Below are positions 34,689 to 60,600 of a stretch of DNA of 64,000 bases, piece after piece. Where the stretch lies: assembly GCF_056712565.1 (NCBI RefSeq), contig NZ_CM160072.1. One strand, 5' to 3'. The translations under genes and the position numbers were made by a program. The notes below the pieces were generated by a model, which saw only the letters and a list, made by a program, of their open reading frames with translations, made no database searches and was not told the DNA's origin. The number at the start of each line of letters is the position of its first letter. Positions within the stretch are counted from its first letter, which is position 1.

Positions 34689-34736
34689 AAAAAAAAAGAA
34701 AGGTAACTTCCCCCGCGAGAGGGAAGTTACCTTTCT
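34689..34736 (-). terminator. Intrinsic-terminator-like hairpin plus U9 tract in the ygcW leader (candidate attenuator)
   Basis: Perfect 14–16 bp inverted repeat (aaaggtaacttccc / gggaagttaccttt, 8-nt loop) preceded on the + strand by nine A residues, which gives a hairpin followed by U9 on the minus strand about 25 nt upstream of the ygcW start codon. Confidence 0.5.
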
Positions 34737-34910: not shown

Positions 34911-34958
34911 GAGAAAAGTAATCCACCTGAAAGGGCGGCTTACTTTTCTCTTTTTTTT
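34911..34958 (+). terminator. Intrinsic-terminator-like hairpin plus T8 tract in the yqcE leader (candidate attenuator)
   Basis: 11-bp inverted repeat (gagaaaagtaa ... ttacttttctc, 18-nt loop) followed by eight T residues on the + strand, ending about 25 nt before the yqcE ATG. Confidence 0.45.
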
Positions 34959-56824: not shown

Positions 56825-58177
56825 TTATTGCCCCGCGACAGGTTTCAGCTCAATACGCTTGATATCGCCCACCAGCACCAGGTAGCTGAGTACCGCGATT
56901 AAGGCATGAACACCAACATAAATCAGCGCCCCATTAAAGGAGCCAGTCGTGCCAACGATATAACCAATTGCGATTGGCGTGACGATGCCAGAAATGTTAC
57001 CAAACATGTTAAACAGGCCACCGGAAAGACCGCTGATCTCTTTTGGCGCAGTATCAGCCATTACAGCCCAACCCAGCGCACCGATCCCCTTACCGAAGAA
57101 GGCCAGCGCCATAAAGCCGATGATCATCCACTCAACGTTGACGTAGTTGCAGAACACCATCACCATCGACAACAACATGCCCATCACGATCGGTGTTTTA
57201 CGCGCAATGTTCAGTGAACCCGTGCGACGCATCAGCCAGTCGGAAATAATCCCACCCAGCACACCGCCGATAAAACCGCAAACCGCCGGAACGGAAGCCA
57301 CAAAGCCCGCTTTCAGAATCGACATCCCGCGCGCCTGCACCAGATAAACCGGGAACCAGGTAATAAAAAAGTAAGTCAGGGCGTTGATACAGTACTGACC
57401 GATATAAACGCCGATCATCATCCGTGACCCGAGCAGCTGTTTGATCTGCCCCCACTTCACGCTAAACGGCACTTTAACTTTGGTGTTTTGCTGATCCATA
57501 TTGATCAGCGCGCCACCCGCGGCGATGTACTCCAGCTCTTTCTGATTTACGCCCGGATGTTGATTTGGCTCGTGGATGACTTTCAACCAGATAAAGCTGA
57601 TGACAATGCCCAGACCGCCCATAAAGAAAAAGACGTGTGACCAGCCCACTTCATGCGTCAGCCAGCCCATAATCGGCGCGAAGATAACCGTTGCGAAGTA
57701 TTGAGCGGAGTTAAAAATCGACACCGCCGTTCCCCTTTCCTGCGCCGGAAACCAGGCCGCAACAATGCGACTGTTGCCGGGGAAAGAGGGCGCTTCAGCA
57801 AGCCCGACCAGGAAGCGCAGCGTAAACAGGGCAACGATAATGCCGAATCCACTAAAGATATCGACGAAGCCTTGCAGCAAGGTAAACATCGACCAGATAA
57901 AGATCGACCAGAAGTAGACGCGTTTTGAACCAAAACGATCCAGCAACCAGCCACCAGGGATCTGCCCGATAACATACGCCCATGAGAAGGCAGAGAACAC
58001 ATAGCCCATTCCCACGGGATCAAGGCCGATATCTTTGGCCATTTCCGAACCGGCAATAGAAAGCGTAGCGCGGTCGCCGTAGTTGAAGGATGTGACGATA
58101 AACAACATCACCACTATCCAGTAACGAGCATTCGTGCGTTTTTCCACACTGCTCGCAGCCTGACTTAAAGAACTCAT
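56825..58177 (-). CDS. gudP: Glucarate/galactarate MFS transporter
   Basis: 450-aa 12-[48 protein letters not shown]... Confidence 0.9.
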
Positions 58178-58501
58178 TGTTGCACTCCTGAAAATTCGCG
58201 TTAGCCACGCTCACTCTGGACTGCGACATCGCCAGGAAATCAGAGGTGACGTAGGGTGTTTTTGCCGTTTTTATAGGTCGTTCACCGAATACGGCGCGTG
58301 TTTATATCTGGCAATAGCAGTATAAAAAGCGCGCCATAGCGGCTCACCGTGCAACAACACAACATTAATGCGTTCAATGAGGCCCGATTTTGGCATTAGC
58401 CCTGGACGGTGGAATCCACTTCACGGAAATGAAAACAAGAACAAGAAAGGAAGGGTTAAAACGAAGAAATAAAGAAGAGTATGAAATGGATCGCTTGACT
58501 C

Positions 58502-58558
58502 CAGGCAAACGCCAGTAAAAATCCGCGCTATGAAGCAGTTTTTACTGGCATTTGCCTG
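58502..58558. other. Long near-perfect inverted repeat (about 20-bp arms, 17-nt loop) in the yqcA–gudP intergenic region
   Basis: caggcaaacgccagtaaaaa ...17 nt... tttttactggcatttgcctg, one mismatch in the arms, no adjacent U-tract on either strand. Coordinates approximate (±2). Confidence 0.5.
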
Positions 58559-58610
58559 AAAAGATTCGATTCAGCACCGCTAAAACGGCATTTACCGCTC
58601 GCTGAACATA

Positions 58611-59060
58611 TCAGGACAACATCGTGCCCCAATGTTCAACCCACGGATTTGATTCCGTTTCCGGTTCCGGGTTCTCACTGGCGTCAATCAACAGCATTTC
58701 GCCAACCCGCTGAGCGCTCTGTTCCTGCAACAAGGCATCGAACTGTTTGCCGCCATTGCAGAAATTCACATAACTACTGTCGCCGAGCGCAATCACGCCA
58801 TAACGCAGATTCGGCTGGAAGCCCAGACTATCTTTGATTCCCTGAAAGAGTGGCACAATGCTATCAGGAAGGTCGCCCTGCCCGGTCGTGGACGTAACCA
58901 CCAGAACATACTTATCCTGATAGGGCAGCCAGTCGCTTAATTCAGGATCTTCAAATACCGTTGCTTTGTGGCCCTGCGCGGTCAGAATCGCTTCCGCTTC
59001 TTCGGCCACTAACAGTGAATTCCCGTACATGGTGCCGACAAAAATACCAATTTCCGCCAT
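58611..59060 (-). CDS. yqcA: Flavodoxin-like protein YqcA
   Basis: 149-aa [34 protein letters not shown]... with flavodoxin FMN-binding signature. Confidence 0.85.
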
Positions 59061-59077: not shown

Positions 59078-59860
59078 TTAGGAACTTATCTCTCCATCCT
59101 GACCCGATGGCGCACTGAACTCAACCCTTTCATTTTCAGGAAGCAGACCCCGCCAGCCAAATTGTGATAACGCCTGCATCCAGGTGTCGTCCAGGCCCGC
59201 GTGAATAGTCAGCGGCTCGCCAGTAAAAGGATGCGTCAATGACAACTGACTAGCATGCAGCATTAACCGCTGAAGGCCAAAATGTTCAGCACCGCTGCGA
59301 TTCTGGCGTAAATCACCATGTTTGCTGTCGCCAATAATCGGGTGGCGCAAATGGGCAAGATGGCGACGGAGCTGGTGCTTACGTCCGGTTTTCGGCTCCA
59401 GTTCTACCAGGCCGTAGCGCGTGGTCGGGTAACGTCCGGTCGCTACCGGCATTTCTACGGTCGCCAGACCGCGATAATGCGTCACTGCTGGCTGCGGGCC
59501 TTTATCTTCGCGGGCAAATTTATCAGCGATTTTGTCCAGTTCTTCCACCAGTGGATAATCCAGCACCGCTTCTTCCATCAACCAGCCGCGCACAATCGCA
59601 TGGTAACGTTTCTGGATTTGGTGCTGTTCAAACTGTTGTGCCAGCAGCCGTCCGGCCTCGCTGGATAATCCCATCAACAACACACCAGAAGTGGGTCGGT
59701 CCAGACGATGAGCAGTAAACACATGCTGGCCTATCAGGTCACGCACGGTTTGCATGACCACTACTTTCTCGTCGCGATCCAGCCAGCTGCGGTGAACCAG
59801 CCAGCCGGAGGGTTTATTTACCGCAACCAGCCATTCATCCTGATAGAGTATTTCCAGCAT
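59078..59860 (-). CDS. truC: tRNA pseudouridine(65) synthase TruC
   Basis: 260-aa ORF with RluA-family catalytic motif ([12 protein letters not shown]). Confidence 0.9.
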
Positions 59861-60189
59861 TAGCTCGCATCATCCGCAAAAAGAGCATCCAGTTTTTCCA
59901 GCTCAGCCAGAATAAGCGCGCGTTGCGGATGATCAGTCGCCAGCGCCATTTCATAATAGGGCGCAACAGCAAAAGCGCCCGGTAACGGCTGGTTGTTATC
60001 TAACAAATCGTGCATCCGCGGAATCAGTACCCATTGCAACCACTCCAGTGGTTCCATGGTGTCCATAAAGAACGGCTGGGTACTCGCAAATTGATGCGGC
60101 AGGGGTTCATCGTTTCGCCAGTGCTGATGTTCACGCAGTAACGCTTCAAGCGCCTGCAACTGGAGACGAACGCGGTCATGAGTGGTCAT
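59860..60189 (-). CDS. yqcC: DUF446-family protein YqcC
   Basis: 109-aa ORF; position downstream of truC as in E. coli. Confidence 0.8.
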   Translation of the reverse strand: MTTHDRVRLQLQALEALLREHQHWRNDEPLPHQFASTQPFFMDTMEPLEWLQWVLIPRMHDLLDNNQPLPGAFAVAPYYEMALATDHPQRALILAELEKLDALFADDAS

Positions 60190-60231: not shown

Positions 60232-60600
60232 AATAAAAAAAGGGAGCACTGTATTCACAGTGCTCCCGGTTCGTTTCGCAGCATTCCGGCTACTTTTGTT
60301 GCTCCCTGCTCATCCTTGACAACTTTTCCTCTGGCCTTGCGGCCAATCGTTCATCCTGAACTATTGCTTCCTGCTCACACCACCCCGATGTGATACTTCA
60401 TCCTGAAGTGTTCCTGGCCTTCCTGACCCACCGAATCATCCTGACCGGTTCTCATTCTCCATCCTGGAGGTGTCCTTTAACGCGTCCTGCGTCATCCTCT
60501 TCGCTTCATCCAGAAGCCTTTCCCTGAAACACCATCCTGGTGTGTCCTTCAGAAGTGTCATCATCCTGATGTTCACTTCGTTGTCTGACTCCCTGTCGAC
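60232..60600 (-). ncRNA. csrB: CsrB small RNA (CsrA-sequestering)
   Basis: 369-nt span on the minus strand carrying about 20 CAGGA(U/A)G / AGGA motifs (seen as catcctg repeats on the + strand), 5' end GTCGACAGGGAGTCAGAC, and a 3' terminator hairpin (gggagcactgtattcacagtgctccc) followed by a U-tract. The length equals that of K-12 csrB. Confidence 0.88.

Follow-up and report, generated by a model that had tools for sequence, protein, structure and literature searches.

Anatomy of the yqcA-gudP inverted repeat

Is a long palindrome between two genes a terminator, a protein-binding site, or another kind of structured element? The yqcA-gudP intergenic region of Escherichia coli raises this question, as it carries the longest inverted repeat (58502-58558) of the 64-kb stretch of DNA analyzed here (the window). 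The original prediction described arms of 20 bp with one mismatch and a 17-nt spacer, took the lack of a flanking T-run to set the repeat sharply apart from a terminator, and proposed either a protein-binding palindrome or a structured RNA. Upon rereading of the sequence, the arms, the spacer, and the location between the two genes were all confirmed. On the + strand, the left arm caggcaaacgccagtaaaaa (58502-58521) and the right arm tttttactggcatttgcctg (58539-58558) are complementary and flank the spacer tccgcgctatgaagcag (58522-58538). The sole noncomplementary position is a C.A mismatch on the + strand that becomes a G.U (U.G) wobble on the - strand. The latter is the sense strand for both yqcA and gudP, and on it the hairpin lies 52 nt past the yqcA stop codon. 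A repeat search extended the palindrome to imperfect 35-nt arms (58487-58521 / 58539-58573) with 77% complementarity. Within the window, the arm pattern with at most three mismatches was found in only two places, against an expectation of 0.01, and none of 100 shuffles reached two. The - strand RNA was predicted to fold at -58.3 kcal/mol over 136 nt (z = -6.4; none of 200 shuffles reached this value), compared with -43.4 (z = -3.7) for the + strand, and a 74-nt segment with the hairpin folded at -40.3 kcal/mol. The identical sequence occurs in K-12 at 2922426-2922482, and the K-12 RefSeq record has no feature annotated over the repeat.

In the yqcA/gudP sense, the stem reads CAGGCAAAUGCCAGU, AAAAA, CUGC, UUCAUAGC, GCGG, A, UUUUU, ACUGGCGUUUGCCUG. 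The order of A5, inner hairpin, and U5 is the layout of an intrinsic terminator with pairing A- and U-tracts. The claim that no T-run flanks the repeat holds outside the 20-bp stem, where the sense strand continues as GAGTCAAGCG without a U-tract and the sequence directly after the stem, GAGUCAAG, falls short of about five U in 8 nt. It fails inside, where T5 (58521-58517) and A5 (58543-58539) bracket the inner hairpin; this run (A-UUUUU-A) is U-rich enough for a terminator, but it sits within the long stem. The E. coli inner hairpin, with its four pairs, 8-nt loop, and stability of -3.9 kcal/mol, is weaker than the GC hairpin expected to abut a U-tract. A terminator scanner applied to 58100-58700 in E. 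coli returned no sites, including in the stretch from the yqcA stop codon to the hairpin.

Coordinates of the hairpin, its parts, and neighboring features are collected in Table 1. With regard to the wider gene context, the table of Adams et al. 2021 puts the CsrB terminator ~48 nt upstream of yqcC, and transcription passing through it could therefore supply the yqcC-truC-yqcA operon.

Table 1. Features of the yqcA-gudP region (window coordinates unless a comparison locus is named)
Feature	Coordinates	Strand	Remarks
gudP	56825..58177	-	Next gene, same orientation; conserved regulatory region ~58200-58430
Pyrimidine-rich, G-poor tract, candidate Rho-loading (rut) region	58431..58490	-	82-85% pyrimidine; C/G 3-11 in 40-nt windows
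Conserved box GTCAAGCGA	58491..58499	-	Lies 2 nt 3' of the stem; forms the upstream edge of the conserved gudP control region
Long hairpin, yqcA-sense RNA	58502..58558	-	5' arm 58558-58539, 3' arm 58521-58502; 20 pairs including one U.G wobble
U5 run directly 3' of inner hairpin	58517..58521	-	One bulged A between; hidden within the long stem after transcription of the 3' arm
Inner hairpin CUGC-UUCAUAGC-GCGG	58523..58538	-	4 pairs, ~-3.9 kcal/mol, weak; sequence varies freely between species
A5 tract, 5' side of inner hairpin	58539..58543	-	Pairs with U5; from sequence and fold
Remnant of 3'-UTR box	58559..58575	-	E. coli GCTGAATCGAATCTTTT; other genera ACTGAATCGWGTTAGCT; with 58487-58501 forms an imperfect stem extension
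Box ACTGAATCGTGTTAGCT, yqcA 3' UTR	L008 3021-3040; also L022, L023, L024, L025		In the window: remnant 58559-58575 (-), leader 58187-58206 (-)
yqcA (flavodoxin), last gene of yqcC-truC-yqcA	58611..59060	-	K-12 annotation
truC	59078-59860	-	
yqcC	59860-60189	-	
CsrB sRNA	60232-60591	-	Full-length Rfam match, 381.7 bits

Conservation and distribution of the hairpin

To place the repeat in a comparative context, we used 80 yqcA loci from different Enterobacteriaceae species, retrieved by a scan for YqcA relatives and cited below by locus number. The hairpin is conserved beyond E. coli: 19 of the 80 loci carry a clear copy and 7 more carry a degenerate one. A covariance model built on the 19 hairpin-bearing sequences matched this locus only, with one hit in the window and hits at 26 of the 80 yqcA loci. 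Clear copies occur in Escherichia, the Citrobacter koseri/amalonaticus/sedlakii group, Salmonella arizonae and diarizonae, Superficieibacter, and two misnamed isolates, and degenerate copies in Silvania, Kosakonia, and Phytobacter. At these loci, gudP as a rule follows yqcA in the same orientation, with a spacer of ~420-515 nt in genera with the element versus ~280-350 nt in those without it. Many genera that keep the gudP control region lack the hairpin block. In Enterobacter and the C. freundii group (L026-L046, L011, L013, L018, L019, and others), it is replaced by REP-type palindromes (GCCGGGTAAGGCG.AGCCGCCACCCGGC), seen within the first 100 nt after yqcA. Salmonella, Citrobacter, and Phytobacter have an extra GC-rich hairpin (CCCTCCC...GGGAGGG) right after the yqcA stop codon.

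Within E. coli, the yqcA-gudP spacer of the window, 100% identical to that of ATCC 11775, occurs in 5425 of 5426 complete genomes, and the stems are invariant in four aligned strains (the window, strain C, Ec40743, and 2014C-4135). The hairpin occupies one locus per genome in those 5425 genomes; the second match per genome most likely reflects the palindrome's own opposite strand. We rejected a REP/BIME or MITE repeat or a mobile element on the grounds that the hairpin is single-copy in E. coli genomes and at all loci. Rfam covariance models gave only chance-level matches (E > 3) in the E. coli intergenic region, with CsrB as the only match nearby. Rfam scans extended to five other genera likewise gave only CsrB nearby, with no match in the Salmonella, Citrobacter, Phytobacter, and Superficieibacter regions. 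In E. coli 2014C-4135 (L085), an IS66-family insertion, with an annotated accessory tnpA, lies 8 nt 3' of the hairpin after GAGTCAAG, equivalent to window position ~58493. In EC6563, only spacer query positions 277-433 match, which suggests a second rearrangement nearby. We also considered a target-site duplication flanking an inserted palindrome (CTGAATCGA versus GTCAAGCGA); the two match at only 6 of 9 positions, which we judged to be chance.

Selection on base pairing and the functional strand

Pairing was assessed with a hand-specified structure and the covariance model; RNAalifold on a wider MAFFT alignment, in which the inner hairpin was misaligned, gave no structure. Across the 19 orthologs, 75.6% of cells were paired in the specified structure, versus 34-50% when the partners were slid. 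The outer-stem pair 26-63 is A-U in seven of the aligned sequences, C-G in six, and U-A in three, and four pairs of the inner helix show change on both sides. Between Escherichia species, the loop differs at up to 11-12 of 17 positions and both arms are identical (L005 and L006). Unrelated hairpins of 5-7 bp (CCTTTC/GAAAGG and similar) replace the inner hairpin in Citrobacter, Superficieibacter, and others, and the distance between the conserved arm cores ranges from ~7 nt in Salmonella, which lacks the inner hairpin, to ~18 nt in Citrobacter and Escherichia. In this comparison, the covariation, the freedom of the inner sequence, and the variable spacing point to a selected, base-paired RNA stem and not to a protein site of fixed spacing.

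Several features bear on which strand is functional. G.U pairs fill 39 cells in the yqcA sense versus 22 in the opposite sense (27 versus 11 in the core helix), counts that are not phylogenetically independent and include a few positions favoring the other strand (L003 and Salmonella). The sense fold is better by 6-12 kcal/mol in five of six Escherichia sequences and by ~4 in L003. Further, a TAC to TAT change in the 3' arm between Escherichia species keeps the pairing only in the sense RNA. The functional strand is likely the yqcA-sense RNA; we stop short of certainty because the G.U counts are nonindependent and a few positions are contrary. Of the options in the original prediction, a structured RNA in the yqcC-truC-yqcA 3' UTR is the most likely one, as judged from the covariation, the G.U bias, and the stronger fold in the yqcA sense.

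Terminator ancestry and remodeling in Escherichia

The orthologs place the concealed terminator layout in an evolutionary setting. Of the 19 hairpin-bearing orthologs, 18 have a sense T-run of T4-T7 after the inner hairpin, the exception being L003 with only TTTC; the A-run is present in most, being degenerate in five to six. After the outer stem (GCCNGTAAAA ... TTTTTACN'GGC), most non-Escherichia copies carry a conserved G/A-TTTTCA-Y (GTTTTCA). The inner hairpins of L008, L010, L022, and L025 reach -6.8 to -8.8 and qualify as terminator GC hairpins, and a simple scanner scored the Citrobacter MGH106 copy as terminator-like on both strands. Two Escherichia lineages (L005 and L006) have no inner hairpin abutting the T-run and keep the full outer stem. 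The scanner misses L067 and E. coli most likely because it extends the stem through A:T pairs and thereby consumes the tail.

Escherichia differs from the other genera by a TTTTCA to TTTGCC change, which pairs with the conserved GGCAAA of the 5' arm. As a result, the stem is lengthened to 20 bp (plus 4 bp) and the external U-run is gone. By sequence comparison, the E. coli form is a remodeled terminator-type hairpin and not a different kind of element. The sharp contrast with a terminator that was drawn at first was therefore overstated, given the hidden A5/hairpin/U5, the T4-T7 and GTTTTCA of the orthologs, and the terminator-like Citrobacter copy. The locus offers a concrete case of intrinsic-terminator remodeling, in which two point changes turn a U-tract into extra stem.

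This ancestry raises the possibility that the hairpin still works as an intrinsic terminator in E. coli, with release at the internal U5 in the bidirectional style and the outer 15 bp formed only in read-through RNA. We consider this unlikely. Such an explanation would account for the A5/hairpin/U5 architecture, for the T-run of four to seven (three in L003) after the inner hairpin in the 19 orthologs, and for the Citrobacter copy that scores as terminator-like on both strands. As in bidirectional-type intrinsic terminators, A-tract, GC hairpin, and U-tract stand in the right order on the sense strand, and the Citrobacter, Superficieibacter, and other orthologs look canonical. In E. coli, however, the GC hairpin is 4 bp (~-3.9 kcal/mol), the U-tract is buried in a further 15-bp helix, and the outer-stem U-run of other genera has been mutated away. 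The inner hairpin is missing from the two Escherichia lineages that keep the outer stem, and the scanner finds no terminator in E. coli. Furthermore, the covarying pair 26-63 lies beyond U5 and would never form in an RNA ending there. The target of selection is therefore the long hairpin, a structure confined to RNA that extends past U5.

A transcript end at this position was also sought in published data. The curated Term-seq/Rho tables of Adams et al. 2021 contain no 3' end or Rho region near K-12 2922330-2922490, no 3' end with coordinates 29222xx-29225xx, and no yqcA/gudP entry, the nearest 3' end on this strand being that of csrB at 2924161. This counts against termination at U5 and equally against the explanation favored below, but weak expression of the operon is possibly the reason. 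Likewise, the TERMITe and iRIL-seq supplements have no yqcA/gudP 3'-end entry.

A putative protective hairpin at the 3' end of the yqcC-truC-yqcA mRNA

The sequence on the gudP side of the hairpin separates into conserved boxes and a tract of conserved composition. The box GTCAAGCGA is followed by N5 and then TTTCAYACTC (58477-58486) and was found in 32 genomes, including hairpin-less ones. Its distance to TTCCGTGAA (58420-58428) is fixed at 71-72 nt (61 nt in two genomes); the same distances separate GTCAAGCGA..TTTCAYACTC from TTTTCATTTCCGTGAAG, and a further 75 nt separate TTTTCATTTCCGTGAAG from TGCACGGTGAG. Three gudP upstream boxes thus stand at fixed distances across genera within 58343-58499 (-), and they are probably regulator sites, conceivably for CdaR. 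From their sequence and phasing, the boxes look like the gudP control region, with the hairpin where the two units meet. Between the first and the second box lie 62 nt that in E. coli are 84% pyrimidine, with a C/G ratio of 5.3. On the sense strand, C exceeds G in all 32 box-keeping genomes (mean C 19.2 versus G 7.3 per 62 nt), and among these genomes the composition of the tract is conserved and its sequence is not. The tract is richer in U than in C (C ~26%), a point against the Rho-dependent explanation given below.

In Rho-dependent E. coli transcripts, steady-state 3' ends have been located just after stable stem-loops without U-rich tails, with C-over-G enrichment and rut sites immediately downstream and with PNPase and RNase II trimming the RNA to the stem (Dar & Sorek 2018, PMC6061677). 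The yqcA hairpin matches this description in being a stable stem-loop downstream of a gene, with a tail (GAGUCAAGCG) that is not U-rich and C-over-G enrichment immediately downstream at 58431-58490. REP elements are the other known protective 3' structure, at other loci (PMC6061677), and such elements occupy the orthologous yqcA site in related genera. Two differences set the yqcA hairpin apart: it is unusually long (20 + 4 bp), and it contains an internal A5/U5, a relic of its intrinsic-terminator origin, whereas the published class is not associated with upstream A-tracts (PMC6061677). Like REP/BIME sequences, it is an extragenic imperfect palindrome at the 3' end of an operon; unlike them, it is single-copy in each E. 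coli genome, lacks the REP consensus, and has an AT-rich center. A REP-based version of protective 3' stem-loops in Rho-dependent transcripts was reportedly described by Peters et al. 2012.

The explanation that we favor, with somewhat more confidence than doubt, is that the hairpin marks and protects the 3' end of the yqcC-truC-yqcA mRNA, having once been an intrinsic terminator, with Rho-dependent release occurring downstream. From the observed structure, conservation, covariation, strand bias, position, and tract composition, we infer termination, Rho dependence, and trimming as follows. The ancestor would have been an enterobacterial intrinsic terminator made up of an A-tract, a variable GC hairpin, and a U-tract, together with a covarying outer stem followed by GUUUUCA. 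In the Escherichia lineage, the outer TTTTCA would have become TTTGCC and the inner GC hairpin would have decayed to 4 bp or fewer; the internal U5 would now support only weak intrinsic termination. Most polymerases would pass the hairpin and be released by Rho, which would load on the C-rich, G-poor tract just downstream. The RNA would then be trimmed by 3'-5' exonucleases to the base of the stable hairpin. In this manner, the hairpin would both set and protect the mRNA 3' end, and the gudP regulatory region would be shielded from upstream transcription.

The hairpin is a previously unannotated instance of a well-known type of element. For annotation of E. coli, the hairpin marks where the yqcC-truC-yqcA unit likely ends on its 3' side and how far the gudP control region reaches upstream. 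The product of the remodeling would be a U-less protective hairpin next to a putative Rho-loading tract, a combination that illustrates why scanners and readers overlook such sites.

Complementarity to the gudP leader and other candidate roles

In Citrobacter and Salmonella, a 17-nt box (ACUGAAUCGUGUUAGCU) directly 5' of the hairpin is complementary to positions -30 to -10 of the gudP leader, where its target abuts the gudP Shine-Dalgarno sequence. The predicted duplex has an energy of -17 to -22 kcal/mol (z = -2.8 to -4.6), and no site elsewhere in the respective 5.4-kb locus scores better; all of these cases come from one clade and therefore represent few independent events. In Silvania, Superficieibacter, and Phytobacter, little or no complementarity is seen; in Escherichia it has been lost, and the E. 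coli gudP leader still carries the target sequence. These observations allow a reading in which the hairpin is the terminator module of a conserved yqcA 3'-UTR regulatory RNA that controls gudP, which we regard as quite doubtful. Such an RNA might act in trans as a 3'-UTR sRNA, or read-through RNA might serve as a "translational insulator" that masks the gudP ribosome-binding site. The complementarity could also be merely an old inverted duplication. If the regulatory reading were true, Escherichia would be a lineage that lost the box and compensated with a stronger hairpin. Any wider interest of the locus is confined to this Salmonella/Citrobacter complementarity, and no major question is opened by it.

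Processing or protein binding of the duplex has to be weighed as well. About 24 nearly continuous pairs is the minimal size of an RNase III substrate, and the predicted fold of the hairpin reaches that number. The duplex might thus be a target of RNase III, or its 3' end might be bound by ProQ, with consequences for mRNA stability or for release of a 3'-UTR sRNA; we give this a slim chance. ProQ-specific terminators characteristically have an A-rich 5' flank that pairs with the U-tail, and binding by ProQ requires at least four residues of free 3' oligo-U (Stein et al. 2020, PMC7367173). Like the ProQ-type 3'-UTR terminators of cspE and malM (PMC7367173), the yqcA hairpin has an A-rich motif, with A5 pairing to U5, and the Citrobacter and Salmonella box 5' of the hairpin would offer an sRNA a target in the gudP leader. 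However, the long E. coli stem has a free oligo-U tail only if the RNA ends at the internal U5, and the complementarity between box and leader is lost in Escherichia.

The protein-binding palindrome of the original prediction fared poorly. A DNA site for a gudP regulator (e.g., CdaR) or for another dimeric protein would fit with the location of the repeat 2 nt from the conserved gudP upstream box, with arm sequences (GGCAAATGCC.GTAAAA) conserved beyond pairing needs, and with the resemblance of the arms to GGGCTAATGCC in the gudP control region. A palindromic operator is expected to hold its half-sites at fixed spacing without compensatory change, but here the spacing ranges from 7 to 18 nt between genera and the arms change on both sides, as at pair 26-63. 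The G.U asymmetry is unexpected at a DNA site, and most genera with the gudP boxes at fixed spacing lack the block. In addition, a comparison of the gudP upstream region with the spacer of the co-regulated garP-garD region found no shared (CdaR-type) motif. Taken with these points, a DNA-binding role is highly improbable.

We give equally little credence to a + strand RNA antisense to the yqcA 3' end, for which the hairpin would terminate a divergent transcript from the gudP region or the left arm would provide a promoter: a promoter-like TTGACT-16-AAAAAT (58495-58522), an A-run that reads as a T-run on the + strand, and a Phytobacter group that keeps the hairpin-then-T-run order in the + sense only speak in its favor, but the -10-like T is not conserved in other genera (the ground on which we rejected a sigma-70 promoter), the fold is weaker and its wobbles become C.A mismatches, the A-run is degenerate in five to six orthologs whereas the sense T-run has fewer than four T in L003 alone, and the small + strand ORFs are unconserved, with the ATG lost in E. 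coli.

With respect to coding potential, a 42-aa ORF on the + strand (58390-58518) has its stop codon inside the hairpin arm and corresponds to the hypothetical protein WP_001296328.1 in the RefSeq genome HS30-1. The ORF, probably spurious, covers the purine-rich strand opposite the unconserved tract. We rejected a small protein encoded on the + strand: the sequence under this E. coli ORF is not conserved from genus to genus, and the ATGAAAACGCC... ORF that other genera carry differs in both frame and length (10 to >50 codons) and has lost its ATG in E. coli. Elsewhere in the window, two further clean inverted repeats lie ~200 nt apart at 34697-34736 and 34911-34950, with arms of 16 nt that are perfectly complementary (AGAAAGGTAACTTCCC/GGGAAGTTACCTTTCT) and of 17 nt at 88% complementarity.
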